DNA of 64,000 nt from Sedimentisphaerales bacterium (GTDB taxonomy: Bacteria > Planctomycetota > Phycisphaerae > Sedimentisphaerales > SM23-30). Under the pieces are notes generated by a model that saw nothing but the letters and a program-made list of their open reading frames with translations, did no database searches and had not been told where the DNA came from. Positions 12,481 through 55,900 of this stretch are shown here, in pieces (position 1 is the first letter of the stretch; each line of letters begins with the position of its first letter). A program made the translations under genes and the position numbers. The stretch lies in the NCBI GenBank assembly GCA_963666285.1, contig OY762711.1, one strand, 5' to 3'.

Positions 12481-14220
12481 TCAATAGTTGATACTATCTG
12501 CCTCTAAAGTAATAACAGGATCGACCAAATGCAGAAAATCATTTCCAACTGCCGGAAACTCATAATTTTCCGGCAATGACTCAATACCATCTGTCACGAT
12601 AAATGTCAGAAACCGGTCCCGGCCTGACAAATCTATATCAATATTAATAGTCCCGGTATCAACCTTAAGTGATTTAACCTGATATCGAACCTCTCCGTCA
12701 ACCAAGACCCAAAAATCAACACATGGTATCTGTTCAACATTATTTTTTGCTTCCGTAATTCCGCCATAAGCCTTAAAGCGGCCAAGCTTCATGCCGTGAA
12801 CAGAATTACGAATTGCTTCAAGATCGAAAGTTATTCCTCCATTGCTGTGAAGCACCATGATATTATTATCATTATACTCGACACCATTTTGAACAAAATC
12901 AGGAATAGTCTCGTGCCAATTGCCAATATCACCACGGTAAGCTACCGTTTCATGTGTATATATGCCACTTGTCTTCGGGCATAAAAAACGATAACCATCA
13001 GATGATATTTTCACATTACCACCTTCCTTATCAGGTACAAACACTCCATCTATATATCTCGAAAATGGTACAGAATGATACTCAGAATCCGAAGCTCTGC
13101 CATCCTGTTTAACTTTTGTGATATATGAACCTGTCTTATAATCAATGCCGCCAAACTCTTTAACATTACCAAAACCATCTCCACCGCTAATATAATCTGT
13201 AAGTTTCAAACTTTCACCTCTCCAGACTAAATTAGATCTTGAATCTATCCTTCTCACAAATTTTTGTGAATCGTAAGCAAGTTCACCTATTTCACCTTCT
13301 ACACCTGTTACTTTTCTTGCTGATCCTTCTTCCAAAGTTACAGCACTTAGCGATTCTTTGCTACCGGAACCTAACGCAACTTTCCCCTTAAGGACATACA
13401 GTTCGGAAACTTTGTTTGAATATGATTCAACACCAAACTCAGTGCCAAGGTCAACAATTGTAGAATTAGGCGTTTTAACCGTAAAACCTATCGCAGCTTT
13501 TGGAACATTCGCATAAATCCTGCCATGCTTCATCTCCAGCCTGCAATCATTTTTCACTATAAACTCTGTTGGTGCTTCAATTGTTACAAAGGTATTATTG
13601 TCAAATAATATTTCAGCAAATCCTTTGTTTAACCGGAACACATGGTTTTCACCAACAACGAACCGATATCCTCTTTCTAAATCTATATTTTCCCATTGTG
13701 CATCTAAAGTTGAAACAAGTGTAGCGGTTTCATACCCCGGCTTTGGTGAAAAGATTATCAAACTGAACACAATAACCACAGCCGCTGCCAAAGCATAGTA
13801 ATATAATTTAGACTGCTTTTTGATTTCCTGTTTTGATTGAGTTTCTTTGATCGTATCATTGGGTTCTGGCTGAAATTGCTTTGGCAATTCAACTTCTGGA
13901 ACAGTGCTTTCTCCCCTTGCCAGTTTCAACAAAACATTTATATCAAGTTCTTCATTGTTTTCATCTTTTTGGAAATTTGCAATATCAGCATGATCAAATT
14001 TAATATCATTTTCCTGGCTGCCAAACAAAATACCTGAATTATTATAGTCACTAAAAGCAGTGTATATAGTAAGCATTTTTAGAAAACACTCTCTAGCTTT
14101 TGAATTACATTTAAGCTGAGCTTCTAAATATTCAAACTGGTCATCAGAAACCTTGCCATCAAAAGTCAGCACGATCAACTGTACCATCTCATCTAAATAA
14201 TTGTTATGTTTATCTGTCAT
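12481..14220 (-). CDS. FecR-like anti-sigma factor with C-terminal NPCBM-like domain
   Basis: Single TM (YYYALAAAVVIVFSLIIF), FecR motif FTVKTPNSTIVDLGTEFGV, and C-terminal VDFWVLVDGEVR...LTFIVTDG. Directly follows an ECF sigma gene. Confidence 0.8.
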   Translation of the reverse strand: MTDKHNNYLDEMVQLIVLTFDGKVSDDQFEYLEAQLKCNSKARECFLKMLTIYTAFSDYNNSGILFGSQENDIKFDHADIANFQKDENNEELDINVLLKLARGESTVPEVELPKQFQPEPNDTIKETQSKQEIKKQSKLYYYALAAAVVIVFSLIIFSPKPGYETATLVSTLDAQWENIDLERGYRFVVGENHVFRLNKGFAEILFDNNTFVTIEAPTEFIVKNDCRLEMKHGRIYANVPKAAIGFTVKTPNSTIVDLGTEFGVESYSNKVSELYVLKGKVALGSGSKESLSAVTLEEGSARKVTGVEGEIGELAYDSQKFVRRIDSRSNLVWRGESLKLTDYISGGDGFGNVKEFGGIDYKTGSYITKVKQDGRASDSEYHSVPFSRYIDGVFVPDKEGGNVKISSDGYRFLCPKTSGIYTHETVAYRGDIGNWHETIPDFVQNGVEYNDNNIMVLHSNGGITFDLEAIRNSVHGMKLGRFKAYGGITEAKNNVEQIPCVDFWVLVDGEVRYQVKSLKVDTGTINIDIDLSGRDRFLTFIVTDGIESLPENYEFPAVGNDFLHLVDPVITLEADSINY

Positions 14221-14229
14221 TACTCACCA

Positions 14230-14769
14230 TTAAATTTCCATCCCCATACATTGAAGCAAAGTTGAATGTATTTTTGCAATATTCCTGTAAAAGGTTCTCA
14301 GAGACATACCGAATCTTGTTGCAATCTTTTGAGCTGTTAAACTATCTTCATACTTAAGCTTAAGTAAATTTGAATCTTTTAAAGGAAGCTTTTTAATACA
14401 TTCTCTTAAAGTCTCAAGTTGAGAATCATATTGCTGCATTTGGCTACCGGCTTGATCATTTATTGCTTCTAATGTCTCATGTGAAAATTGAATAGGATTA
14501 TTCTTGTGTTTTCTTCTAAAACCGGAAATAACATATTTGGTAACAGTAAAAGCCCATGCTAAAAACTCGGTGCCGGGTTCATAAGTATCAAATTTCTGCC
14601 AGAGAATGGAAATAGCCTCCTGCATAATATCGTCAGCATCAGATTTATTAGGCCATCTACTCAAGATATATGCATAAATTCGCCCCTGAACAGGAGTTAA
14701 TAAATAAAGAAAATATTCAGGCCCTTTTTTGTCCTGAAACTTATCTTTATCTTGGCTGTTATCAAACAA
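14230..14769 (-). CDS. ECF RNA polymerase sigma-70 factor
   Basis: ADDIMQE...LWQKFDTYEPGTEFLAWAF (region 2) and LRECIKKLP...KIATRFGMS (region 4). TTG start with AAGGA RBS. Confidence 0.9.
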   Translation of the reverse strand: MFDNSQDKDKFQDKKGPEYFLYLLTPVQGRIYAYILSRWPNKSDADDIMQEAISILWQKFDTYEPGTEFLAWAFTVTKYVISGFRRKHKNNPIQFSHETLEAINDQAGSQMQQYDSQLETLRECIKKLPLKDSNLLKLKYEDSLTAQKIATRFGMSLRTFYRNIAKIHSTLLQCMGMEI

Positions 14770-15113: not shown

Positions 15114-18100
15114 TTATTTTATACTTAGCCACCCTTGAGCAAATTCAGTAAGATCATTAAAATCTATACCACCGCTGCGGTCGATATCGGCCCCATCACA
15201 CCTGAACCAGCTGGCTGAACAATCCGAATTAAGCCAGTTCGCAGCAAGATAACTCATATCTGCAATATCTACCTTGCAATCGCCATCAAAATCGACATTT
15301 GATCCACTGGTTGTAAATGACCAGACAGGTCCGGAGATATAATCACCACAATCATTACTGACATCTACTTTCCAGTAATATTGCATATCAGTCTCAAGAA
15401 CTCCAGGATCAAATATCTTAAACCTGTACCCTTCTGCGGCCAGGTTTACAGGTGGATTAACTGTATCCAGGTAGATATCATAGCTCAAATCAGAAATACC
15501 AAGCCTGACAGCATTGGCAATCAGCCTGGCATAATTATCATCATATGAATAAAAATCCCAACCCAGCAATATTGCCATACCGTGTCCCATATAGTTGGAA
15601 ACAGCAACAGGTTTGCCCTGATAACTAATCAGTATCTCATTTTCTGTTGAATCATAAGCTACAGTACCAATACTACTTACAAAGGATTGATCCATATTTT
15701 CTGTCAATAAATTATCCGAAGCCTTCTCAATTTCCATGCCACCAATAATTGCAGGCTGGTCGGCCAGAACCTGCATCATCCCAGCTGAGTTCATTAACTC
15801 ATAAGCACCCCAGAAATAATCACATGCGATTACTATTCCACCTCGCTCGACAAATTCATTAAGTATTTCTGACCAGCTTTCGCCAAGTGCAGAAGCTACA
15901 GAAACAATTGTATTTTGCTGCTCAGGTATAATGAATACCTGATTGGATTCTAATAACTGCCCAAGTAAGATCGGATCTTCCTCATCTGTCAGTGTTACGG
16001 AAAAATCTGTAAAATACTGTGCAACAGCATTTAATGTATTTTCAACCTCACCTCCAACAGTATTGTTGGCATACTTAACAAACATAAGTACGTTAACAGT
16101 AGCGTCCGGAATATCGATAAATGCCTTTGTTGGTAATGCACTAACAGTTGGTATGCCCTTCTCAGATTCGCAGGTAAGTTTTTTATCCAGAATACTTTGC
16201 TGCAACTCAACAGAACGAGTTTCACTATATGCCAGCGAAGATTTCGTTTCAACAACCGGAACATCCCACATCAGCGGCAGGTTAACCGGGCGGCACACGC
16301 TCTGATCTTCCGGCATAACCGGCTCAGGCTCCAGAATTTCTTCACAACTATGGATAAGAATATCAACTGTTGCTGTATTGGAGACCGTCATCATGTCAGA
16401 GGTGGAATTATAGCAATACCACTGGAATTGATCTGAAGATAGAGCATCTCGATCAGCAGAATACAGTAAGATATTGTCATTACCCAAACCATAAGGAACT
16501 GTATCTATCAAAGTCTGTCCAACATATAAATCACCATATTCAGGTAAAGATGAAATAATGTATTCATCTGCAAATTCAGCTTCCAGCAACACTGCCGCAG
16601 ACTGGCCGGCCCACACATCAATTGTGCTGTCAAGTGCGATCGGATTATTCGCTATACAAGATGAACTGCTGCTAAAGTCAGTTTCAACAAAGGATGATGG
16701 TATGCCCTGACCTTCAGAGAAACCGACACCAACCAACTCAGAATTGCCATCAACATCCAGCCAGTGAATTTTTATTACACCGTTAAAAAACAGTTCCGTT
16801 TGAAAAGTGTAATCGTTATTATCCCAGTCCCATACTTGATTAAAAGTAATAACAACCCTGTCATCCAACTGGTTGTAATAAACTTCGCCACCAAAATCCG
16901 GGTTAAGGTCAGCGTAGAACATGGAAATCCTGGGAACTGCGAAATGTTCAGAATAAGAAAAGGCCGGAACAGTACTACCACTTCCAAAAGTAATGTTACC
17001 ATTAGCACTTACATAAAAATATGAATAACCAGTTCCATAGTGTAATACCTGTTTACTATCACTAAGAACAATTTCCTGATAAATATCATCATTATTACCA
17101 GAGTAATTTAATATCCTGGTTCCCGCATTGGGGTCATTTGGCAGATCAGTCAGAGAATCAATACAAACGGAATAGCCTCCTTCAGAATCATCCGGAGTAA
17201 AAGTAGCACTCAAACCTGAAAGATCTGATTCACCTGCTAAAAACGATTCGGTAATATAATCTACGGGAGGGAGAACCTCTATTGTAATAGAAGCAATATT
17301 AGAGCTACTATCACCATCGTTAGCATACCAATTGAAATAATCAATACCTTCAACGTAATCATCTATTTGATAAGTTAAGATGTTATTAAAACCTAACGAA
17401 TATGGTACAGTAGTAATTTCTACTTCACCATCGTAGAGTTTACCAATAACCGGCAATTCTGTGATAACATATTCCAGCTCCTGCGGAGTACCATCATCAT
17501 AAGCACTTAGAATAATACTTTGTGACATTACCTGGTTAACAGTTAAATAGATATCAAGAGCAATAGGAGCAATTGGACCTACCTGCTGACATTGCTGATA
17601 TCTATTCAAGTTACTTTCCAGAAATACTTCAGGAATTACACCATTGGACAGTCCAACCAGCCCATCACCAGCTTCTATATTTATCCAGGTTATCTTTATA
17701 ACCCCACTAAAAAACAGCAGCAGCTGAAAACTGTTTACATTGCCAGTCTGGCTACCACTGCTATTTAATTCACCGATATCTTCATATGTTACTACCAGCT
17801 TTTCATCATCAATTAAATAGCTGATTCTAGTAACACCTGATATTGGACAGAGATCATCAAAAAATGCCGAAATTCTTGGCATATTAAAATGTGAGGAAAC
17901 AGATTCAGTAAACTCGGTATCAGCAACAAATGTCAGGTAACCATTTGATCCTACATAAATTGCATTATACAGCTGCCCAAAAAACGGGAAATTATGATCA
18001 TTCAACAATATCTCACGGGCATCATCGTCATTAAGAGATATCTCAGTAGAACCGGATGGATCAACTTCAAAATCAACTGTATCCCGGACACAGGCCAGAT

Positions 18101-19793
18101 AAAAACTGTTAGCATTACCGGGGGTAAATACAATAGTTTTACCGTTAAGGTCAAAGCTGTTATCTCCAATGCCGGTAAAGGTTTCAGTTAAATAATCAGT
18201 ATATCCAAGGGCCATCAGAATTGTGATATGTCTTACAAGATTGTTACTATCTATAATTTCAATATTTGCAGTATATATACCATCACTCATCGAAGCTGTT
18301 GTTTCAGGATTTATACTGACAGTAATATCCTCAGAATCCCCGGCAACCAAAGTTCCTGATACCGGACTGACAGAAAGCCATGAAACCGGGACAGAGGCCT
18401 GCCAGGAAAGCTCCTCTGTTGTTTCGTTCGCAAAGACATATTCAACATTAGATTGCGAAAATGGGCCACCGGCCTGACCAAAGAAGATATAATCATCTAC
18501 CGGGCTAATATCCAGCCCAACCGGAGACTCCTGAATGATTTTTTCACAGAATGTGTACAGATCATAATAATTCCAGTACGAGCCATATCTTAAAGACGAA
18601 CTCCGGCAGCCGCTTATCCAGCTGTCAGATGCAATGGTTTCATAATAAGCAAGAAAATCTTCCCAACTTGTAGCATCTAAAAACTGCATATTGCTAGAGT
18701 TATAATCAGTTTCCGGACCACCGGAAGGGAAATTAACAGATAAACCATGCGCTCCCTGATAGGAAGCACCATGCATTTCTGCAATAGTAATATTACTCAA
18801 AGCCGTTTCGACATTTGAAGCATCCAGCAGGCATAATTCCGGATTGCTCATACCATTAGCAATAAGACTGTCAGAAAAATCATTTACCGCGGTTAATAGC
18901 GTATCAACGCCTGAAAGATCAAAAGCAGCCAAAGTTTCACCAGTTAAATATGACTGATAATAACGGTTTACAATCACAGAACCTAATTCAGGTGTGGTGA
19001 TAAAGGGATTAGTTTGTAAATCTTCGAAGATAGTGTCATAGGGCCAACCATCAGCGGGTATTTCAGCTGGAGAACCGATAAAGTAATCAACCACATCTTT
19101 GTATTCAGAAATCACTTCAACCATAGCCATGAGACACGCATCCATGCCTAAGACATCGATATTTATAAGTTCTTCTGTTTTAAGCTCTTCCAGAACTACC
19201 CTGATCTCTGCCAGAGATAATTCATCCTGACTGGTAGAATCTAGACAAATAGCTTTGGCAGGGTCTTCCTCAATCTTGGGTAAACCCAGCCCTCGCGATA
19301 AACTGTAGGCTGCAGCCTGACTTACATAGTAATCGGCCCAGCCGTTACCATGGTTCCATAGAACAAGAGCGGTTCTGGTTGACGGGAAACTGGCAGCACC
19401 CCAGGAGATAAAATCTTTCAGATTTTGCGGGTCGCCCATATTTATTTCGCCGAGATCCTCACCCCATGAGCTGCCGGGGGTATCGCCGAATTGCACATAC
19501 CCCCTGCGGGTAGTAGTCCAATTGTCATATGAGTAGCTGTAACTACCTATCCTATCAAGCATTACCACAATATTTATATTGGTATCACTGCCAATAGAAG
19601 ACATTTCGATAAAATCCAAGAGTGCATATTCTTCAAGGTCATTGTCGCCATCGACATAGATAAGGAAAGTCCATTCTTTCAAAGGTGCCGGGTTGGTTGG
19701 TGAATATTGCGCATATATATGCCCAGATATGCAGAGCAACAATATCATCACCCAGAAAGTATTGTTAATAAGAGATTTACAGGCTGTTCTCAT
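15114..19793 (-). CDS. Secreted clostripain-family (C11) cysteine peptidase, multidomain, with dockerin-like C-terminus
   Basis: WTFLIYVDGDNDLE, LVLWNHGNGW (His) and MDACLM (Cys). A BACON-like unit, two NIDO-like repeats, and two C-terminal DxDxD-type loops. Confidence 0.85.
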   Translation of the reverse strand: MRTACKSLINNTFWVMILLLCISGHIYAQYSPTNPAPLKEWTFLIYVDGDNDLEEYALLDFIEMSSIGSDTNINIVVMLDRIGSYSYSYDNWTTTRRGYVQFGDTPGSSWGEDLGEINMGDPQNLKDFISWGAASFPSTRTALVLWNHGNGWADYYVSQAAAYSLSRGLGLPKIEEDPAKAICLDSTSQDELSLAEIRVVLEELKTEELINIDVLGMDACLMAMVEVISEYKDVVDYFIGSPAEIPADGWPYDTIFEDLQTNPFITTPELGSVIVNRYYQSYLTGETLAAFDLSGVDTLLTAVNDFSDSLIANGMSNPELCLLDASNVETALSNITIAEMHGASYQGAHGLSVNFPSGGPETDYNSSNMQFLDATSWEDFLAYYETIASDSWISGCRSSSLRYGSYWNYYDLYTFCEKIIQESPVGLDISPVDDYIFFGQAGGPFSQSNVEYVFANETTEELSWQASVPVSWLSVSPVSGTLVAGDSEDITVSINPETTASMSDGIYTANIEIIDSNNLVRHITILMALGYTDYLTETFTGIGDNSFDLNGKTIVFTPGNANSFYLACVRDTVDFEVDPSGSTEISLNDDDAREILLNDHNFPFFGQLYNAIYVGSNGYLTFVADTEFTESVSSHFNMPRISAFFDDLCPISGVTRISYLIDDEKLVVTYEDIGELNSSGSQTGNVNSFQLLLFFSGVIKITWINIEAGDGLVGLSNGVIPEVFLESNLNRYQQCQQVGPIAPIALDIYLTVNQVMSQSIILSAYDDGTPQELEYVITELPVIGKLYDGEVEITTVPYSLGFNNILTYQIDDYVEGIDYFNWYANDGDSSSNIASITIEVLPPVDYITESFLAGESDLSGLSATFTPDDSEGGYSVCIDSLTDLPNDPNAGTRILNYSGNNDDIYQEIVLSDSKQVLHYGTGYSYFYVSANGNITFGSGSTVPAFSYSEHFAVPRISMFYADLNPDFGGEVYYNQLDDRVVITFNQVWDWDNNDYTFQTELFFNGVIKIHWLDVDGNSELVGVGFSEGQGIPSSFVETDFSSSSSCIANNPIALDSTIDVWAGQSAAVLLEAEFADEYIISSLPEYGDLYVGQTLIDTVPYGLGNDNILLYSADRDALSSDQFQWYCYNSTSDMMTVSNTATVDILIHSCEEILEPEPVMPEDQSVCRPVNLPLMWDVPVVETKSSLAYSETRSVELQQSILDKKLTCESEKGIPTVSALPTKAFIDIPDATVNVLMFVKYANNTVGGEVENTLNAVAQYFTDFSVTLTDEEDPILLGQLLESNQVFIIPEQQNTIVSVASALGESWSEILNEFVERGGIVIACDYFWGAYELMNSAGMMQVLADQPAIIGGMEIEKASDNLLTENMDQSFVSSIGTVAYDSTENEILISYQGKPVAVSNYMGHGMAILLGWDFYSYDDNYARLIANAVRLGISDLSYDIYLDTVNPPVNLAAEGYRFKIFDPGVLETDMQYYWKVDVSNDCGDYISGPVWSFTTSGSNVDFDGDCKVDIADMSYLAANWLNSDCSASWFRCDGADIDRSGGIDFNDLTEFAQGWLSIK

Positions 19794-20327: not shown

Positions 20328-20723
20328 ATGACAAAACCAACTGAAGAAAAACAAGGCAAATATGAGCTAACCGAGGCGGAATGGTCTATTATGCGGCATA
20401 TCTGGGATAACGGTGCCAGTACTGCGGGTATGGTGCAGGAGGCATTGGAAAAGAGTAAAGGCTGGGCGTACAGTACAGTAAAGACAACGATGGACCGTAT
20501 GGTAAAGAAAAATTTACTATTTACCGAGCGTATCCGCAACCTGCAATTGTTTAAGGCGTGTATCAGCCGGGAGCAGGCACAAAAAGGAGAGTTTCAAAAG
20601 ATGCTCTCACGAGCGTTTAACGGTGCTTTAACGCCAATGATGCAGTTTCTTCTGGAGAATGAAGAGATATCGAAGAACGAACTGGATGAGTTAAGGCAGA
20701 TGATAGAAGATAAGAAAAGTTAA
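20328..20723 (+). CDS. BlaI/MecI/CopY family transcriptional repressor
   Basis: LTEAEWSIMRHIW...WAYSTVKTTMDRMVKK...FNGALTPMMQFL...ELDELRQMI. Directly upstream of an M56 gene. Confidence 0.95.
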   Translation: MTKPTEEKQGKYELTEAEWSIMRHIWDNGASTAGMVQEALEKSKGWAYSTVKTTMDRMVKKNLLFTERIRNLQLFKACISREQAQKGEFQKMLSRAFNGALTPMMQFLLENEEISKNELDELRQMIEDKKS

Positions 20724-23900: not shown

Positions 23901-26900
23901 GGATGAGTCTGTCAAGAAGTTTGATACAGACGACTATAGCTGCGTTATTGACAAAAACGGTAATTTCACCATAGACTGGTACCAGAGCGTTGTCAAAAGA
24001 AGGTTTGATTTACATTCTGTCGATCAACTAAACAATACAACACAGGCTAAGCCACTATGGTCAAATGTTGACGCACGCACTTTTATTGACCCTAATAAAT
24101 GGATAGTTTATGATGCGATAAAAGATGAATGTTCTGCAAAAAACGCAAAAGCACGAGCTAAGCATGCAACAAATCCGCTATCGATAATATTTGATTTTGA
24201 TATTGAACGACTTTACAGCGTAAACCTTCATTCTCAAATCCGAAACATTGTCCTCTTGTATGCAAATAATGGAACTAAGCCTAAAATAGCTGCTGAGACC
24301 GTTAACGGTATACCCTGTATTAAGATTTCAATCTTTAAAGAAGCTGAAAATGATAATGGCAACATAATGAATAAGCTAATTGAGTTCTGGGTTTCACCGG
24401 AGATGGGACATTCGCTGATTAAATATAGATTTTCTATGGGCAAATGGTCCCAAGGAATAGACCTCCCCCTTTGGCAAAGTTATGATGCAAGCTATATAGA
24501 GTCCAAAGAAAATCATGGAGTGTGGCTGCTTAATAAGCTGGAAATGTCACATAAAGATATTACGATGGGCAATATTGAAACTCTTCGGGTAGAGTTTGTT
24601 GAGACAGAGATTGATACTGCTATTTCTGGTGAAGTATTTACTACCAAGGGTTTGGGCGTAACAGATAAGACTAAGTTTGTTGATAAATTGATGGAAGAGA
24701 AAGAAAGTCAGAGATATGGCGAAGAAATTAAGAAAGAAGAATTAAAAATTAAGAAAGAAGAAGAAGAAAAGGGATATGGGAAGGAAAACATAAAGGATGA
24801 AGTATCAAGTATCAAGTATAAAAAGAATTCAAACACGAAAGACGGAAAAGATGCGGAAATGGGGACGGACCCCATTAATTCATTGGATATTAAACAAGAA
24901 TGGAAAACAATTGCAGAATCATATAAAGTGAATTCCAATATTCCGGTGCAAGTTGCTTCAGTGGCAACGGATTACGGACAGGTAGTCTTTGGAAATGCGT
25001 ACAGTAAAGATGATGGAGCCTGGATATCAACAACTGACGATATTGACAGAAATATTTGTGAGGTACGCATTGTCGCAATCGATATCGATGGTAATATATT
25101 ACTTCAAAATGGCGGAGGAAGCAGCACTGTAAACAAAACAAATACACTGCAATGTCGATTTGACACTGAATTGAGCAAAGTCAGTCTTTTTGAAATTCAG
25201 ATCAGGAATAATGAAACCACAAAAGATGCAGAAGCTGAAATTAATATAGAAACGATTAAGGGATGGGTAATAGATTATTATAAAGATTATGACCTGGAGC
25301 ATCCGAGTGATCGAATATTGAAAAGAAGATTCCTCGAATGGAATGAACCGGCAGTTGACAGCAGCAACCGACATCTGATAAATTGCACGGTTGAAGAGAC
25401 AAGCCGGAAAAGCGGAGATGATATTATAGTTATCAAGGGCGAGGACTTTACCTTTAACCCGGACGGCAGTTGTGCATCGAAGAAGAAAACAAACACAAAT
25501 TCACTATTTGATTATATCGCGAGCGATATTGTCGGTAGATACATAAGAAACAATATAGATGATGGCTATAGCTGGAAAAGTTATGTTGAGAAAGGAAATT
25601 TAGGAACAGATGAAAATGGTAACTATACATATAGGATTAAATATGAGTTGAGATATAATGATAGCAGCTATTCTTATACATATTTCACGAAAACATTTAC
25701 GGTGAATCCGGATTACGAGATAATTGCGATTGAAGAACTGCCGAAGGAGCTGACCAGTTATGATAAACGCAGGATTGCGAACATGGTGAGTGAATACAGA
25801 GAGAAGATGAGGAAAAGGGATATTGCCGGGATACTTGAGATGCTGGTGATTGAGGATGATAAACATCTGGAGATGGTTAAGCAATATCTTGAAGAAACTT
25901 TATACGGGAAATGGTCAGATTGGAATTTTTATTCAGAAGAGAATAATAAGTTCGTTGACGTTTATGAAGATGGTAATAATAACTTTGAAGCCTGGACACT
26001 GACTAAATCTTTGGATGATAAATGGACTATAGGAGTGATACCGGTAAGGTATAAGAATGGGGAATTTAAGCTTGACAACTTTAACAAGGAAACAATAGAA
26101 AAGTGTAAAATAATTAAGACAACAGATATAGACAGTATGGGCAAGATATTGCAGCAGAAGAATGCCGAGGGATGGGTTCATGCCGAAGGAAAAGAACTGA
26201 AGAAGCTTTATCTGGATAAGATAACTCATGAACAGAGAAGCCTGGCGACATTAAGCGTTGCTGATAAGTACAAATTAGAGATGATGAGATTTTGTACAAG
26301 AGAAGAAATTGAGAAACGGTTGAACGAACTTGAGAGTATGACACCGGAAGAGCTGAAGGAGAAAATGATATCGGAAGCCCTACTACGACCAGCTCAGAAC
26401 AAAGCGGCAAGAGGAGAGAAGTCTGAAGTAAGAAGTCTGAAGGCTGAAAGTGAAGAAATTAAGAATTCAGAATTAAAAATTAAGGAAGAAGAAGAAAAGG
26501 GATATGGGGTGGAAAACATAAAGGATGAAGTATCAAGTATCAAGTATAAAAAGAATTCAAACACGAAAGACGGAAAAGATGCGGAAATGGGGACGGACCC
26601 CTTTAATTCAACCTATCTGCAAAATTCCGGCAGTATATGGGATCTGCACAAGACAGACAGGATGCAGGATATCTTTATGCTTGACCTGGAAACGGGGCTG
26701 AAAGCGAAGCTTAAAGATATCGCTGATATCGAACAGCTGAAAAGGACACAAGAATCATTCAACGCAGGTGATATCTATTATTGCTATGATCAACAGCCAT
26801 GGCTGGGGATAGTTCAAGAAGCACATTTCGCGAATGGAAATATAGAATTTGACCCGGCTTTGAAAAGGACAGTAATCAGCGGGTTAAACAATATTATTGT

Positions 26901-29900
26901 TATAACTAAAGATAACAGGACGTTCGATATAAACTTCAGCTATTCAGATGAGAATGGCTGTATGATAAAATACCGAGAGATAGCGGCAGGTGAACCGATG
27001 CCGAAGATTAAGTTCAAGGCGCAGGTTAGCACAGAAATTCGGTTTGCCGCTATTGACAATAAGGCCGTGCCAGGTTATGACAATTCAGACTGCAGCATAG
27101 TCAGTAAAGATGAATATGAAGAGATTATCGAAAAAACTAAAAAGGATAGTAAAGGCAGGTTAATTACAGCACCTAACGTAACATTATTTGACGGGGAAAA
27201 AACGGACATTTCGTTATCGACTGAAATATTTCGCCAACTAGGATATGATAATATGGATATCCGGTTTACTCCTTATGTAATGGATAATAATATAGTATCT
27301 CTTGCGGTCAAATTCAATCGGGAAATAGACAGCGGCAGACGGGCCGAAATACAAAAATATGTCAGGTTTGAAGCTGGTCAATATGGCGTACTGCCTCTAA
27401 AGAATATTATCGGGATTGATTACCTGATGATTGTCAATTGTCAGATTATTGAGCCTGACGATGGCAGCAACGGTAATCATGGCAGCTGGGAAAAAGATAA
27501 AAAGGAGAAAAGTGATCCCCTATTCGATAGAGAGTACCTGGGCGAGTGGAAGATGCCAGAGCTAGATATTAAAGAGGGAAAGAAAATTAAAAGCTTAAGG
27601 CTGAACATAAAAGATAACGGTACTATGACGATCAGATATATCGATATGAATGGAGATACAATATTACTTGATGCAGATTATGATGTTCAGGATGGCATGG
27701 TCATAGCCGGGAACGGGGATAATATCTACGTAAGATGCTATTTCAAAGATGATATATTTTCAGCTGAGATGCCTGAATTTGATATGACAGTACTGTTGGA
27801 ACAAGTGATGCCGGAAGCTAATTTAAAGACTGACGGCGAAGAAATTAAGAATTCAGAATTAAAAATTGAGGAAAATATAAAGGATGAAGTATCAAGTATA
27901 AAGTATAAAAAGAATTCAAATACGAAAGATGGAAAAGATGCGGAAATGGGGACGGACCCCATTAATTCACTGGATATTAAACAAGGATGGAAAACAATTG
28001 CAGAATCATATAAAGTGAATTCCAATATTCCGGTGCAAGTTGCTTCAGTGGCAACGGATTACGGACAGGTAGTCTTTGGAAATGCGTACAGTAAAGATGA
28101 TGGAGCCTGGATATCAACAACTGACGATATTGACAGAAATATTTTTGAGGTACGCATTGTCGCAATCGATATCGATGGCAATATATTACTTCAAAATGGC
28201 GGAGGAAGCAGCACTGTAAACAAAACAAATACACTGCAATGTCGATTTGACACTGAATTGAGCAAAGTCAGTCTTTTTGAAATTCAGATCAGGAATAACG
28301 TAGAAATGGGGACGGACCCCATTAATTCAACGTTCAAAACAGTTGTACTTAAAAATTCAATCCAGGCGATCAATTTAAGTAATAATCAGAAAACATATGA
28401 TTTTTATGTACTGGATATGGCAAGCGGAAATGTGAAAGAGTACGAAAATGTACAAGATTTCAATCATTTGACAAATATCCTGAATAGCGTCGGCAAAGGA
28501 GATATGGCGTTTGTATTTACTAAAGACAGATGTATGCCGGTAATCAACTGGGTTCGGAATGCTCGGCCTGTTGAAAAAGCCGATGAAAGACAGAGCCACT
28601 ACTTCTACAGTGCGAAGTGGTATCCGGACGATAATATAATTACCAATGAAGGCAAACGATATTATGTATATTTCAAGGATTGCGATGAAAACGGGTGTGA
28701 GATATATTACAGGGAGATCATGCCGGGAGAATCGCTGCCGAAAAATGTCGAGAGAGAATATGTCAATGAAAATAACGAGATAGTATCAATAGAGATGGAA
28801 CTGTTCAGTCTGAATGGAACTGAATACAGTATAGACACAGAAAGGATAATTAAAAACGGCGACGAGCTGGATGAGACCCAGATAAGTTTTCTGCGGAAGA
28901 TCTCAGAAAGTGGAAAAGTGAATTTCTGGGAAAAGCTGCCAAAGATAAAAGCGTTTAAGACAGAAAAGGTAGATATGAGCTCACTAGGGGCAATATTGCC
29001 AGCCGACAAATTCCAAATAGACAAGCTGACCGTCATCCCAAATGATATAAACGGCGGAAGTTTATGCCTGGATATTGATCTTGCCGGTTCGTTTCATGCC
29101 GTCGACTATACAGGCGATAACAAAACAGATGCGATAATGAGTTCGTTCACACGCAAGGTTACGAATATTATGCCTGAAAACAAGGCGGCATTGCTGGAGC
29201 TGTGCGGAGTAAATGGCATTCATTATTTCATGCTGGTTAAAATGCAAAATGCAGGCAGTGATCTGAAGGATGAAAATGAAGAAATTAAGAATTCAGAATT
29301 AAAAATTGAGGAAGAAGAAGAAGAAGAAAAGGGATATGGGATAAGGGATAAGGGATTAGGGAATGTGCTCGCTGACGCTCGGTTAATTAATAATGAAGAA
29401 GCAACCACGAAAAAGGGGACGGACCCCATTAATTCCTTTACCCCCTCCTGGATTGGACTGCCAGAAGGGTGGGACAGAGATAAGGCCTGGAAAGAGATAA
29501 CCAGCTACCTGGAAAATAATATAAAAAGAGATTTGCCGGAAAGTAATATAAGTTATTTCAATGATGACATAAAGCATGGACCGGTTGAAATATCGTACCA
29601 TACACAAAAATATCAAGTTGAAAGTCCGGTATCTAAGGCAAGAATTGATACAGAGAAACAAACAGAAACAGGCCCTCAGCCAGACGGACTGATAATCAGG
29701 ATATATCTAACTGAAAATATTGAACAGATGGTAAGGCCGCAAACTCTGGATAAAACTTTCTGGAAAGTTGATTTCCTGAAAATATATCTGCCTGAACTTA
29801 AATTGTTCCTGATGGCCAACATATCATACGGCAATCAAACCGACCAGACACTTCTCAGTAAATATAGAAATTTAAACGGAATAATGGCTAACATTATCGA

Positions 29901-32900
29901 AAGTACGCAAACCACAAAAATCACAGAAGTGGATAACCAAAGGTACGATACAGTTGATAAAAAATATATGGATAAGATGGCGGGTGAGGTTTTGTTCTGC
30001 GGTGAGTATAAGCATATAAGCCGGAGACGTGAGATAGAGACGCCCAGCACACTGCTTGTAACTCGAGGGGCAGACGGAGAGATAAACGCTTTGGCGTATA
30101 TGCCGTGGATGGGCAGCTATGACATGGCGGTTGGTGATAAAGAAGGTAAGCTGTCGGGCTATTTTACGTGGCGGGCAGAGTCGGAAGGTAAGCCCGGGTT
30201 CGATACGGAGCTGGAGCTGGGTGATGGCAAGGCGGTATTGAACCGGCACGGGATACGTGAAGACAAGGTAAATGTGGAGTTGAGTGTGGCGGAAGGAGCG
30301 AGGTTTAGCCCAAATAGCAGGCCGGACAGCTATTGTGCAGATAATATATTTATGCGCGGGCTGGATATAGCAGTTGAAACGAGTAAGGAATTTGAAGTTT
30401 ACGACTGGGATAACAGCGGCGAGGCGATGGCGAGCTATACGATAGAGGTGTATAATGCCGGGAAAGAAGAGGTTGTGGTGCCGGCGGGCACGTTTGAGGC
30501 GAACCATTATGTGCTGACGCAGACCAGTACCGGAAATACGTGGTATAAGAAACAAAACGGACATATTACCGATTATTGGGTGATGGATGACGGGATAATT
30601 GTGCGGGTGCTTCGACACAGGGAGCCGTATGAAATACAGTTAATGAAAAATGAAAGAATACAGGGATCAGGTTTCAGAGGTCAGGGATCAGGGAAGGTGC
30701 TCGCTGACGCTCGAGCTAATAATACTGTATCTAAAGGGGAATATGAGATATGCGGTACTGTAACAACAGAAATGTCAGAAGGTCGCTGGGAAGAGTTTTT
30801 TGCCAGAATGGATGCCGCCAAGACAGAAAAAGAGCTGAATGATATTGTAACGTCAGAGAGGCAGCCAGGAAAAGAACCAGCGGCAAATGTTGAGGTAAAA
30901 CTAATCGGCCGGTATGGGAATAAACCGTTTGAGCGAATAACATCAACCGATAATAATGGCAATTACTGGTTCAAAGACCTGCCGATCGGCAGTTACAGAA
31001 TATCATGCCAAGATAACATTGTTTATAATCGAACCGGCAGTATAGTGACAATGGTCGGTGAAGGAGATAAACCGATAGAGTTTGTTTTGTCCGGTAAGAA
31101 GAGAGCCGAGATGGATATCGAACTTCGTGATAATAACCTGCTGACTGTAACAGGGAGAGTACTTGATCAAAAAGGCAGGCCAATCACAAATGCTGTTGTA
31201 ACCGGGACAAGTACCCCACTTGAAAATGGCGGGATAGGCGAAACAAGCGAACAAACGAGGATTTTCAGTCCGCAGATAATAACCGGCAAAACTGATGCCG
31301 AGGGCAGGTATCAGCTGGCAGGGTTTGAAGCAGCCCATTATATAAACGTATTTCGCAGTTTGATCAATACGAATAAGGATGCACGCGGACCATATAAATT
31401 CTTTGCTGATATTACGGTACGGGCGGATGGGTATGTGCCGGCTGAGAGGAAAGCGTACAGAGTTCCGCTGGCAGGTGAAGAACAGCTATATCGTGCCAGG
31501 CGGCTGCTGAAAGCATATGAGAAATTGGATACTGATGCCAAAGTGAAGGAAAACCCTGAGCCGGTATGGCCGTTTGCGAAATGTGAAGGTTCAAAGCTGG
31601 TTGGTGTAGATATAGTAATGAAGTCTGAAAGAATAAGTGAAGAACTAAGAACTAAGAGTGAAGAGTTCAGGAATCCCCCTACGGCGGAAGCTAATTTAAA
31701 GACTGACGGCGAAGAAATTAAGAATTCAGAATTAAAAATTAAGAAAGAAGAAAATGCAAATACAGCAGTTGGAAATGATGAGCTAGTCGTTGAAGATGCG
31801 GAAAAAGAGACGGTCAGCATAAATTCCAGTTTAATTTTTTCAGAATCTGCATATGACAAGATGAAAAAAGAGCTGGTTCAGGAGACCGCGGAAAATACAA
31901 AAGAGTCTTCTATCGATCAATTTGTCGGTATCTGGGAAAATCCGGGATTTATCGGTAACGATGAAGGAAGGCCAAAGTACACATACTTACTGATAATATA
32001 CGAAGACGGAAAAGTCATACATGAAGAACTCGAGCTGGGCGTTTATAAAGTTGAAGAAGGAAAATATGATATAAAACAGAACGCCATTATTATCTGCGGC
32101 AGCAAGGGTGAAGAATATGCAATTTGCAAGATAGACAAAATCGGGAAACTAATTGTTGCCCAAAAAGCATATTCAATATCAACCAGATATAATAAAATCA
32201 TGTCAACAACAGACATATCTACCAAAACAATGAAGCAATGGTTCAGCTTGCGGTCTGTAGTACCATTTTTAGGTAAATGGTATCTGTTTAATCATATCAT
32301 AGTAGATAACATTGGAAATAATTCATCTCTGGTTAAAAGTGCAGAGTGTAAGTTTAATAATGACTCGACTTTTGATATTACATTAGACGATGGAACAGGA
32401 CAGGATGCGATTTCTGGTTTTCAGTGTAACTTCAAAGACGGTAAAATTAATATTTTGATGGGCAATTCCATCTTTGGTGTATGCCGTATCGATGACGGCG
32501 ACCTGATAATCGAACAGCCAAACCTTGGAACGCGAATGATATTTAAACGAGAGAAGCCATCAGATAAAAAAGAACTGACAGAGGCGGATAAGGGAGAGAT
32601 AAAGGCGTTGGTGCTAAAGTTCTGGCGAAAGATACGAGAGAAGGACATGGATGCCCTGATAAGCATGCATATTATCGAAAGTAACGAGCATCGAGAGCAG
32701 CTGGAGAAATATCTGGGGATGATATTGGACGATATTAGACCGGGCGATCCGGGGTATCCGAGTGAAGAGAATTTGCGGATAGTTGATGTTTTTGCCGAAA
32801 ATGATTATTTTGCGGCTACATTACTGCAAAAGGTATCCGATGAATGGATAGTGAGGGATATCCTGGTGAAAGAAGAGGCCGGCGAGTATAAGATGAATAT

Positions 32901-52971: not shown

Positions 52972-55900
52972 TCACTGTATATCTTCAATAGAAGGTGCTT
53001 TTGTAGCAAGGTTTCTCAATAATGAATCAATTTCGTTCTGGAAACCAGGCTGTGGAACCGAATAACTATAATAGTCAGTATCAGCCATCTTGTTACGTTC
53101 TTCAAACTTAGCACCTGCCAAGTCAATAGCAGCCGGGTTATAATTCATAACATTATCAGGTTCGTATACAGCAGCACTGTCAACCGGATAAGTAAGGTCA
53201 GGATTAACTTCTGTAGAGTGTTCCAGACCTAAAATATGTCCTAACTCGTGAATCGCCGTACCGGCAATAGCTGTAACAGCCATATCAACATTTTCCTCAT
53301 CAGTTCCGTCAAGGAATAAATTGTAATAATCGCCTATACTGGCCGAACCAACTGTACACATATCAGATCTGTCACTATTGTGTCTGTCAACAGTTTCTGC
53401 AATACCCATCAATCCAGAAAGCGGATAACTACCACCAATAACAACAGTGGAATGCTCCATCCTATTGACATTGAAGTCCGCAACGGAAAGAACAGCGGAA
53501 TCAGGATAATCCTCTTCGCCGTCACCATCCCGATCAACGTGGACATCAATATCAGTAACAAACTGGATAAGCTGCAGGTCTTCTCTGACTTCGGTGTCAG
53601 GATCATCCAGAGCTTCACGATAAGCATTTTCAATTTCAACGACCATACGAGCTACCATGTATTCCCAGGTAACATCAACACGATCATCAGCCAGACCGTC
53701 ACCATCGACATCATCCATAAAGTATGATGGCAGATCTTTAAAATCGTCCAGACTGAATGCAGAACGCTCAACTACATCTTCATAGGAAGCGGCAGGAAAG
53801 CTATCAGCCAAATATTCTGCGATGGTGTTTTCGCCGGTTTCCTTATCGCCAAATGACAGGTAAACAATTTGAGGTCCATCACTAGTTGCAATATTACTCT
53901 TTCCGCCATCGGTAGTTGTAATAGAAAGAGTATATGGATTAACCGAGCCATAATTATTAGTATCTACAAATCCATCACTAGTACTATTTACAAGCATTGA
54001 TACAACAATATAATAAGTACCAACTAATGTCTCAGCCACACCGTCGCCATCAAGATCTTTAAGTGTCATTGGGTCAAGGACATGATCTTCATATCCATCA
54101 ACATCCAGTGTATTGATAGCCTGAACCACATAATCAGGATCAACTAACTCATCCGGAGTAACAGTATCAGTAGAGTCTGTATAAATAGTTGCAATAGCTT
54201 CAAGGTCACTATTATACACACCCACCAGGAACTCAACATCAGATCCACCGGTATACTTAAGGGCATCAACATCAACCTGCATATACTGTCCTTCTGCAAG
54301 CTCGACTTTATAAATATCAATATCCTGCAGCATAGCCAGTTCAGAAGTGACTTCAATATGTCCGGCGGTCCCGGCGGTAAGAAGCTTACCTTCAGCACTC
54401 ATGCTCCAATCGGTACTGCCGGCAATGTCATCTCTATTAAAAATGTAAAGATTGTCATCTGAATCTTCGTCATAACGTCTCTCATCTGCAATCCATTCTG
54501 TCCCCAGACTTGAATCCATCAGATCAACAGCACTATCGTCAGGAGCAGAAGAATCATAGGCAAGCCCGCTATCAGTGACAGTAATGCCAAAATCACTATC
54601 ACCATCATTGAAGGCATAGATATTAAGATCATATTTGATCGGCTCACTGGCTACAAGGTTGTAACCGAAAAATGAATATATCAGGCTGGAACTACTGAAA
54701 GTCGGGCCAACACGCAATACATAATTGCCGTCTTCTTCAATATTTGCAACCAGTTCGATAGTACCGGAATACGGGTCGATAGTAATTTCGGCATCTTCAA
54801 CCGGTGTTGTGGTAGTATAACCCAATCCGGGACGAAGAATATCAACTGTAGAACCAAAATACAATTCCAGACTGCCGGAACCAGAGTCGGTATCAATAGA
54901 GATTGTAATGGTATTATCATCATAATCAAGAATAGCGGCACTATAAGTATCATCAATCTTGACTGAGTCAACATCGCCAAGCACAGACCAGTCGATATCA
55001 TCAATCACGAGAGTAATGTCTCCCTGACCCGTTGTATAGCTAATATCAAATTTATAGTAACCATGATCAGTATCAGTATTACCACTGCTGCTGACCTGGA
55101 CAGTACCAAGGTCTGTAGCTGTCGTCTGACCAAAATCATGTGTCTGCCAATCGCCATCATTAAGACGAATAAACATGCCGTCAGAATCATATTCAGGACT
55201 ACCCTGAACCGTACGAATCAGAATAGGTTCGCTATCATCTAAAGTACTATCAAAAGTCAGAACAGAATATTCACCTTCTTCGAGCAGCTCTATTGTCTTT
55301 GTCCTGTCCGAACCGGCATTAATAGCAGTGTCAATCTGAATAATACTGTTACCGTTATTTTCAACTGCCAGCAAGCGAGTCTTACTGTCGAAGTCCATCG
55401 CGGTAATCTCATACCCGCTATCAATAGTACCAATAATTTCCGGCCTGCCAAAATCTACATTAACGATAACATCCTGGCTACCGGAATCCGTATCAATCTT
55501 CACTTCTCGAGTATCAAATCTGATCAAGGTGTTTGTAAGAGTATCAAAACCGAAAAGTTCGTTTTTATCTTCACTTAAGACAGGATTGACATCATTTGAC
55601 GGGAAGGATCCAAATGCCAGCTCAGACACATTCCCAAGGTCAAATCCACTCATGGTCCAGTCAGAAGTAACCATGTTTTCACCCGGATTGAGAATATCTT
55701 CAAACTTGATAAGATGGTCAGTTGTGACAACTTCAATATCACCACTGCCAAAAGGATCGAAAGTGGAAGTAACCTCCACAATAGCCCAAAGCTCCGCACG
55801 ATCAACTAATTCAGTCGAGCCATCCGCAGCATTGATTTGCTTAACAGCACCAAATTCGATGCCTTTAATGCCCGTTATTCTCAGCTGAGTCTCGCCTTCG

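Follow-up and report, generated by a model that had tools for sequence, protein, structure and literature searches.

How did one domain of a giant bacterial gene come to stand in it twice, in frame and between two exact copies of the same short sequence? We addressed this question in 64,000 nt of DNA from a Sedimentisphaerales bacterium (contig OY762711.1), hereafter the window, to which all coordinates without a genome name refer and which carries a giant BlaR1-type gene composed of modules and repeated linkers (Table 1). Within this gene the 27-mer GAAATGGGGACGGACCCCATTAATTCA is present exactly at 27943-27969 and 28303-28329, i.e. with a start-to-start spacing of 360 bp or 120 codons, and the DNA in between is a copy of an upstream part of the same gene, 24883-25211 and 27970-28298 differing at 4 of 329 positions. 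An initial annotation, which had described this anatomy correctly, took it for the footprint of a recent cassette integration with duplication of the target site at a palindrome. Our data suggest a different origin: the 27-mer forms the end of a longer repeated linker, and the domain was probably duplicated by linker-mediated recombination or by replication template switching rather than by a dedicated integrase.

A domain present twice within one gene

The 360 bp are a real second copy, in frame, of one protein domain. We refer to the copy at 24883 as domain A and to the copy at 27970 as domain A′. From A to A′ the changes within the 329 nt are T>C (synonymous), A>G (E>G), G>T (C>F) and T>C (synonymous); a fifth difference, again a synonymous T>C, is present at 25212/28299, resulting in a total of 5 differences in 357 nt. 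Mutagenic copying as performed by diversity-generating retroelements was considered for this spectrum and rejected, only one of the changed letters being an A in the presumed template.

AlphaFold2, run on a target of 160 aa with an alignment of 11 rows, predicts an all-β structure for the segment LDIK...IRNN (residues 12-120) with a pLDDT (predicted local distance difference test) of about 90, and pLDDT values below 50 for the adjoining VEMGTDPINS-TFKTVVLKNS.... The duplicated cassette is therewith predicted to be one self-contained fold, a generic β-sandwich. A Foldseek search against the PDB gave nothing at an E-value of 0.001 or better, the best match being a DUF4426 protein (4.3e-3) and the matches being generic β-sandwiches only. 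Twelve homologues of A′ were found in 1.8 billion representatives, the best sharing 47% identity.

A repeat falsely duplicated in the long-read assembly would mimic this arrangement. Six public sequencing runs contain part of the stretch, no RNA run being among them, and four were examined as k-mer (Logan) contigs, which drop rare variants. In favour of an artefact, each linker interrupts the contigs in two runs of one sample, and 31-mers do not phase the left junction. In the same two runs both right-hand contexts are present as contigs (25182-26473 and 28269-29300), and the depth of the 368-nt contig of the domain is about 1.6 times that of its neighbours (40 versus 25-26 in one run and 55.5 versus 30-34 in the other), so that the second copy is real. 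Contigs spanning the second 27-mer come from the two runs of this sample (28269-29300) and from an organism termed B here (27934-29283), which has the junction as well. An artefact is already contradicted by these observations, and we assign it a negligible probability. Neither an empty-site allele nor a circle was seen in the contigs of the four runs.

Homology at the left junction and microhomology at the right junction

The 27-mer is present in two further linkers, one copy being exact (24856-24882) and the other, at 26584-26610, having one mismatch. Over their last 102 nt, linkers L3, L4 and L5 are identical at 96-99 of 102 positions, versus 26-28% identity between the modules joined to them. 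At the left junction of A′ letters specific for L5 persist until 13 nt before the 27-mer, with 4 differences in the preceding 74 nt, followed by 41 nt, 27-mer included, which are identical to L3 (L3 versus L5 97/102). The upstream linker thus contrasts with the module, 4 differences in 74 nt versus 4 in 329. Because of these four L5-specific letters, L5 upstream of the first 27-mer is resident and lies outside the copied tract, and because the 27-mer is the last part of a repeated linker of at least 100 nt, the left junction is one of plain homology.

The right junction differs in kind. The similarity of A and A′ ends abruptly at 25213/28300, where A continues with GAAACC... and A′ with G-TA-GAAATGG..., so that ...AATAA(C)G is joined to GAAATGG.... 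The microhomology available amounts to 1-4 nt, either a shared G or GAAA with an offset of 3 nt, in addition to the two untemplated letters TA. The second 27-mer, which stands here as a solo linker end, carries linker-specific letters (GAAATGGGG...CCCCATTAATTCA) and not those of the form dispersed in the genome (AAAAAGGGG...CCCCTTTAATT), and it therefore derives from a linker. Extended homology at one junction and microhomology at the other, the two features of a repeat-mediated duplication, are hence both present. A decayed linker end also trailing A (ETTKDAEAEINI) was a candidate that we rejected: the local alignment reaches 12/13, and the similarity of the DNA downstream of A to the linker is not significant, 241 and 435 of 2000 shuffles scoring as well.

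In 28297-28334 the odd letters TA and the start of the next module give an outer stem AACGT/ACGTT around the second 27-mer, whose hairpin is the most stable of the five in the gene. The copies in L4 and L6 fold no better than shuffled sequences (z -0.3 and -0.2). That both letters of the TA pair, expected in about 1 of 16 cases, is a weak hint at fold-back templated repair.

These junctions bear directly on the integration of a cassette by site-specific recombination, according to which a recombinase would recognise the hairpin of the 13-mer GGGGACGGACCCC, insert a circular 333-bp cassette and duplicate a target of 27 bp. The exact bracket, the in-frame length and the motif ahead of all five module starts carrying it speak for such an event. 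The 13-mer is present five times in the window, every time on the + strand, versus 0.01 copies expected and none of 100 shuffles reaching five, and as the initial annotation stated, all five copies encode GTDP directly ahead of a module start; half-sites AAGGGGACGGA at 21634 and 23461, and the paralogy of the modules STFKT... (28330) and STYLQNS... (26611), were likewise borne out. The motif is, however, no palindrome. Its reverse complement is GGGGTCCGTCCCC, and pairing is limited to GGGG/CCCC, extended to AATGGGG/CCCCATT by the flanks, resulting in a hairpin core of 4 bp, or 7 bp with the AAT/ATT flanks, and a loop of 5 nt. What stands of the motif as a mark of the crossover or target is that the breakpoints coincide with a hairpin-forming linker end; a palindromic recombinase site it is not.

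Further evidence is at odds with integration. A Pfam scan of 14 neighbouring open reading frames (ORFs; 4232-46419, of at least 150 aa apart from the repressor) revealed no integrase, resolvase, recombinase or transposase. The left junction is situated within 100 nt of ordinary homology, and the insert ends, CTGGATATT... and ...GGAATAACGTA, form no terminal inverted repeats. The short duplication of fixed length left by a transposon was not found either, the 27 nt belonging to a longer repeat, and a 27-bp duplication far exceeds the usual staggers of transposases or integrases. In the manner of an integron we would expect a neighbouring recombinase, a structured site at every boundary and several cassettes; no recombinase was found among the 14 ORFs scanned, not every boundary has a structured site, and the unit bracketed by 27-mers is the only one of its type. 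Cassette integration is therefore very unlikely in our judgement.

Linkers as apparent mosaics of genomic repeats

If the left junction is made of linker homology, the nature of the linkers matters. Differences between linker copies are spread evenly across the three codon positions (98/72/109 and 106/92/97), and changed codons are largely nonsynonymous (134 of 149 and 160 of 170). The linker peptide gave no hit in 60 related genomes; beyond the giant gene, it turned up in just one other M56 gene of the genome holding the window (G000). To judge from these patterns the linkers are repeats at the DNA level and not conserved peptides. Since the linker unit L1 (21440-21720) lies in a loop of the M56 domain, between Pfam matches to profile positions 4-73 and 71-296, repeats were inserted into a conserved domain as well and not just between modules.

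Three building blocks of the linkers have near-identical noncoding counterparts in this genome or in sister species, i.e. (GAAGTCT)n, (GGGATAA)n and a terminator-like hairpin. The (GAAGTCT)n array occurs 13 times in the genome, five times in the giant gene and eight times elsewhere, one of the latter being an identical 32-mer just after an unrelated frame; the three sister genomes of the genus did not match the pattern, although the reversed-pattern control is uninformative here, the pattern being nearly its own reverse. (GGGATAA)n arrays are present at eight further loci, most of which have no long frame. The linkers thus look like species-specific mosaics, apparently domesticated copies of short noncoding repeats of the genome.

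Several observations on these repeats can be added. Long tandem arrays of GGGATAA, with no long frame, are situated at G000:C1:5610200-5610393 and 5188145-5188219. Within the linkers this array is read as GYGIRDKGLG, one unit being changed (GGATTA) where the perfect repeat gives a TAA stop. A dispersed noncoding repeat of about 150 nt (G000:C1:714066, 2801988, 3157385 and 3961138) has a hairpin end, GATGCCGCGAAGCGGCATC, followed by TGAAGTCTGAAGTTTGAAGTCTGAATTCTGAAAA, the same heptamer array that codes for SEVRSLKSE in the linkers.

The hairpin motif within and beyond the giant gene

We found eight copies of the 13-mer in the genome of 6.35 Mb, five in the giant gene and three elsewhere as the 25-mer AAAAAGGGGACGGACCCCTTTAATT. 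Of these three, one follows a stop codon closely, and ordinary coding sequence surrounds the other two. The two ORFs with the 25-mer are unrelated and read it in another frame (EKRGRTPLI); they are L001 (C1:1090738, - strand) and L007 (C1:5620932, - strand), and their products are a membrane protein of 566 aa and a protein of 229 aa. Orthologues of the membrane protein read KQKGQTRDW at the same length, by which the 25-mer looks like a short patch of sequence replaced at constant length rather than an insertion.

All three sister genomes of the genus contain the motif (3, 4 and 1 copies), whereas no more than 5 of 57 more distant relatives carry it, with one or two copies each, roughly as often as expected from a reversed-pattern control. 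In the sister genomes the form is AATTAAAGGGGACGGACCCCTTTAATT with a stem of 11 bp, and five of eight sites, two orthologous pairs among them, stand 5-10 nt behind a same-strand stop codon and are followed by a T-run, which gives this hairpin the look of an intrinsic terminator. That other genes read the motif in a different frame, and that sister species have it in noncoding DNA, supports the view that it is an element of DNA and not only a peptide motif.

A radical-SAM enzyme of two sister species has an in-frame insertion after ...EQYEQTLQWLAE, 28 codons long in G002 (L032) and about 14 codons long in G001 (L057). The insertion is absent from the orthologues in G000 (C1:4306023-4307066), G003, G010 and G015. 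Its core is GGGGACGGACCCC in G002, read as KGTDPFN, and GGTGTCAGACACC in G001 (GGTGTC...GACACC), between arms AAAGG...CCTTTAATT. Both cores are self-complementary, and the hairpin arms have therefore changed together in a compensating manner.

For a cassette inserted by a recombinase it counts that the motif acts at the DNA level, that 8 of the 16 GGGG-N5-CCCC sites of the genome have this very loop, that other genes read it in another frame and that it lies in an insertion with compensating arm changes. Against it, the sites outside the giant gene are within coding sequence or behind a stop, and linker ends which have decayed and lost the hairpin (the end of L8 and the one in the second M56 gene) are still situated at linker-module boundaries, so that the hairpin is not required for a boundary. 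An in-frame insertion relative to orthologues in an unrelated gene, as in the radical-SAM enzyme, is a feature of Rickettsia palindromic elements (RPEs) and transposable elements of the miniature inverted-repeat type (MITEs); many dispersed copies or signs of transposition were not found, with eight copies in 6.35 Mb, 1-4 in the sister genomes and no target-site duplications.

Two further candidates were rejected. The genome carries Y1 (IS200/IS605-type) transposase genes, three identical copies of 155 aa (G000:C1:2682800, 4206138 and 5410617) and two partial ones. Even the nearest one is at a distance of about 306 kb, and none of the GGGG-N5-CCCC types is present three times, which the ends of three identical copies would require. 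AAAGG...CCTTT hairpins were also considered as one genome-wide family; 18 of 111 have inner pairing, and they look like ordinary terminators.

Age of the duplication

Organism B is represented by an 8554-nt contig which covers 27934-29283 gaplessly with 48 differences and has the same junction of A′, 27-mer and STFKT module; the event therefore predates the split of G000 and B. B is intermediate at the five positions that distinguish A from A′, with the letters C, A, T, T and C. Private changes number about 3 for A, 2 for A′ and 3 for B, so that the duplication is about as old as this split and not very recent. Calling it recent was an overstatement, A and A′ (5/357) being as diverged as A′ and B (5/329).

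Between B and G000, A′ shows 5 differences in 329 positions, the second 27-mer 2 in 27 and the stretch that follows 33 in 499; among the differences listed, none falls in the first 27-mer (nine further ones are probably located beyond 28828). This step in divergence at the right junction fits the second 27-mer being the older end of a resident linker. The two 27-mers of B, which differ at 2 of 27 positions, likewise argue against a target duplicated on integration. Ahead of the same A′, B has a different linker piece with 39 other letters of L8 type, and linkers therefore turn over faster than modules.

Searches for further relatives of the locus returned little. The DNA of 27700-28600 gave short low-complexity matches alone, in 2 of 40 relatives, and no orthologous locus for an empty-site comparison. 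A protein database search with aa 2290-2790 recovered the giant protein alone among 5719 candidates of near length and none among 7999 shorter ones, and a metagenome scan yielded 119 pattern matches, 0 of which were confirmed. A contig of run X3 (24844-25639) with A′-type letters at 24883 and 24899 was counted neither as gene conversion nor as an empty site, because the loose ends of this run start or end at GATC and because a k-mer contig may change from one branch to another where variants are separated by more than 31 nt.

Recombination between linkers as the favoured mechanism

We favour, as rather probable, a model according to which recombination mediated by the linkers, or a replication template switch, duplicated one β-sandwich domain without a dedicated integrase. 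Two routes would lead there. In the first, an exchange anchored in the homology of L3 and L5 would depart from L5 at the 27-mer, use A in its L3 context as template and return 27 nt upstream of the point of departure, as a single homology-anchored illegitimate event or template switch. In the second, an unequal crossover of L3 with L5 would duplicate 3087 bp, followed by a deletion back to the end of the resident linker. Either route would result in a recombinant 27-mer to the left of the copy and the resident one to its right, mimicking a target-site duplication. The hairpin would probably favour breakage or strand switching at its base, and selection would have retained only the product that is in frame and preserves the fold. 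The order of steps, the role of the hairpin and the selection are what we infer; the repeats, the anatomy of the junctions, the boundaries of the fold and the junction common with B are what the data show. Linkers made of domesticated repeats would render such a gene prone to the gain and loss of modules.

Some observations weigh against this model. Direction and number of the steps are unreadable from one genome, and a simple microhomology join does not account for the two odd letters of the right junction. The hairpin being in frame in unrelated genes leaves room for a process driven by the element itself. The contig of B is unbroken through A′, and no contig of B matches at 90% or better over 24931-26346, the A-C region; B may thus hold the domain once only, and A′ beside STFKT may be the older copy.

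With reversed polarity A′-STFKT would be the native arrangement and the second 27-mer a linker end of nine codons inserted into the last loop of the domain, the copy at 24883 being derived and truncated; or both copies would go back to old paralogues that gene conversion, beginning in the linker, has made alike. Without the nine codons A′ reads ...QIRNNVTFKTVVLKNS, resembling the canonical end of the domain family, ...RDYKSVTFKDVALKS: related domains end with ...R.Y..V.FKNV.LK, which A′ followed by V and TFKTVVLKNS mimics once EMGTDPINS is removed, and in the profile search they align out to profile positions 130-132. The unbroken A′-27-mer-STFKT contig of B, with nothing at 90% or better over the module downstream of A, fits this order as well, and genes of this genus do acquire in-frame hairpin patches. 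Taken alone, TFKTVVLKNS as the last strand of A′ was rejected and is retained within this alternative only, since AlphaFold2 closes the fold with LDIK...IRNN and leaves TFKTVVLKNS below a pLDDT of 50, a weak argument as the target was cut short, and MAFFT places TFKT elsewhere than on the last strand. Moreover, the paralogous STYLQNS module starts at the same point without an A-type domain, the counterpart from another genus has an A-type domain followed by a C-type region in the order of 24883-26400, and the solo 27-mer is identical to the ends of L3 and L5. On balance we regard reversed polarity or an old arrangement as unlikely, although less so than an integrated cassette.

Beyond the duplication by linker recombination itself, we tentatively raise the possibility that the linkers, as domesticated noncoding repeats composed of heptamer arrays and a terminator-type hairpin element able to enter genes in frame, act as portable recombination joints for the in-frame gain, loss and swap of whole folded domains, the 360-bp cassette being an example caught in the act. 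Should this hold, which we regard as rather unlikely, selfish or structural repeat DNA would have been turned into a device for domain shuffling.

Relation to known systems

The kind of event, a repeat-mediated domain duplication, is ordinary; its substrate is unusual, consisting of species-specific coding linkers from noncoding repeats. Homology-facilitated illegitimate recombination (HFIR) is documented in bacteria, where it combines a homologous anchor at one end with 3-10 bp at the other, and was described for incoming DNA in natural transformation (PMC6382021). The locus resembles HFIR and repeat-mediated duplication in its homologous anchor (identity complete over 41 nt and 95-97% over about 100 nt), in the microhomology on the other side and in a direct copy within the same replicon. 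It differs in that donor and recipient belong to one gene, at a distance of 3 kb, that the product is exact to the domain and in frame, and that a hairpin lies at the breakpoint.

RPEs are MITE-like, about 150 bp long, numerous, grouped in ten families and present in frame in protein genes (PMC10969869). The element studied here is alike in being palindromic DNA which unrelated protein-coding genes read in frame, gaining a short peptide from it. Unlike RPEs, its conserved unit has 25-27 nt and eight copies per genome, and it is mostly a terminator-like hairpin after genes in sister species. SPRITE is a dispersed pneumococcal repeat with a core like a rho-independent terminator (PMC10969869), to which the sister genomes offer a parallel in a terminator-like dispersed repeat with five of eight sites after a stop, an 11-bp stem and a T-run. 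The hairpin of the giant gene, in contrast, is translated, has a weaker stem of 7 bp and no T-run, and its copy number is very low.

With integron cassettes, moved by recombination of attC with attI, the locus shares a discrete unit bracketed by copies of a structured site. Sites of the attC type are 55-140 nt long. Here the site has 27 nt, the neighbouring ORFs scanned contain no integrase, the unit is a domain inside an ORF instead of a promoterless gene, and the left flank is homologous.

If the favoured explanation is right, no new recombination system is at work, and the locus is a clear case, provided by nature, of the growth of a giant modular bacterial gene: DNA repeats coding for an unconstrained spacer peptide would supply the homology for the in-frame duplication of whole domains. 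To our knowledge, palindromic repeats recruited in frame have been described mostly in Rickettsia, and a planctomycete case coupling it to domain shuffling would widen this picture. For annotators the locus holds a warning, as exact direct repeats flanking an in-frame segment need not be target-site duplications.

The giant gene and its surroundings

The giant gene belongs to the BlaR1 type by two features, an M56 domain (Pfam Peptidase_M56, PF05569; E 1.8e-46, aa 249-471) with HELSH as HEXXH motif in the translation, and an adjacent BlaI-type repressor gene. CarboxypepD_reg domains and a C-terminal HEAT_2 domain were also matched in Pfam. It resembles BlaR1/MecR1 in the M56 domain with HELSH and in the Penicillinase_R repressor directly upstream, and is unlike them in that a modular extracellular part of about 4100 aa with repeated linkers replaces the penicillin-binding sensor and that one linker lies in the M56 loop. 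G000 contains six M56 genes.

Older duplications of modules are discernible within the gene, i.e. the STY/STFKT pair, C and C2, and three CarboxypepD_reg domains; aa 1615-1824 and aa 3890-4098 share 28% identity. A protein of 2376 aa from another genus of the family (P0004) has the M56 start and the HEAT end in common with the giant gene and an A-type domain followed by a C-type region, in the same order as 24883-26400. Linkers are absent from P0004, and the giant gene of the window is therefore an expanded version. The older duplications together with this linker-free counterpart show that the gene grew by gaining modules repeatedly.

Table 1. Coordinates of the giant gene, its modules, linkers and junctions, and of the adjacent repressor gene in the window
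Feature	Position	Strand	Characteristics
BlaI/MecI-type repressor gene	20328..20723	+	Pfam Penicillinase_R (PF03965), E 1.1e-30; directly upstream of the giant gene
Giant BlaR1-type gene, 4613 aa	20902..34743	+	single ORF; N-terminal M56, about ten modules and repeated low-complexity linkers, HEAT-repeat C-terminus
Linker L3, 3' part; its last 27 nt (24856-24882) are the 27-mer	24754..24882	+	repeat family D6, alignment, exact 33-mer match
Domain A (LDIKQEWKT...FEIQIRNN), followed by a different module	24883..25212	+	98-99% identical to 27970-28299
Linker L4, 3' part; 27-mer end with one mismatch, joined directly to the STYLQNS module	26482..26610	+	repeat family, alignment
STYLQNS module	26611-27840	+	paralogue of the STFKT module
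Linker L5 upstream of the first 27-mer	27841..27942	+	4 L5-specific letters in the last 74 nt
27-mer copy 1 (EMGTDPINS), end of L5, left junction	27943..27969	+	DNA hairpin -6.9 kcal/mol, z -2.8; within 41 nt identical to L3
Domain A′ (LDIKQGWKT...FEIQIRNN), duplicated β-sandwich	27970..28300	+	4/329 differences from A
Letters TA at the right junction, in neither parent	28301..28302	+	Val codon with the preceding G; help the outer stem
27-mer copy 2 (EMGTDPINS), solo linker end separating A′ from the STFKT module	28303..28329	+	DNA hairpin -10.5 kcal/mol, z -3.75, 0/200 shuffles as good
STFKTVVLKNS... module	28330..29260	+	about 26% identity to the STYLQNS module at 26611-27840
Linker L6, ends ...AAAAAGGGGACGGACCCCATTAATTCC (KKGTDPINS)	29281..29436	+	repeat family
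Linker L8, end	31795..31827	+	decayed homologue of the linker end, 25/33 identical, hairpin lost

Other features of the window lie outside this gene. An ECF sigma factor and FecR pair is located at 12481-14769, and a frame of 1559 aa on the - strand at 15114-19793 contains a clostripain-family (Peptidase_C11) domain. A second giant frame, of at least 3567 aa, is present on the - strand at 52972-63675.

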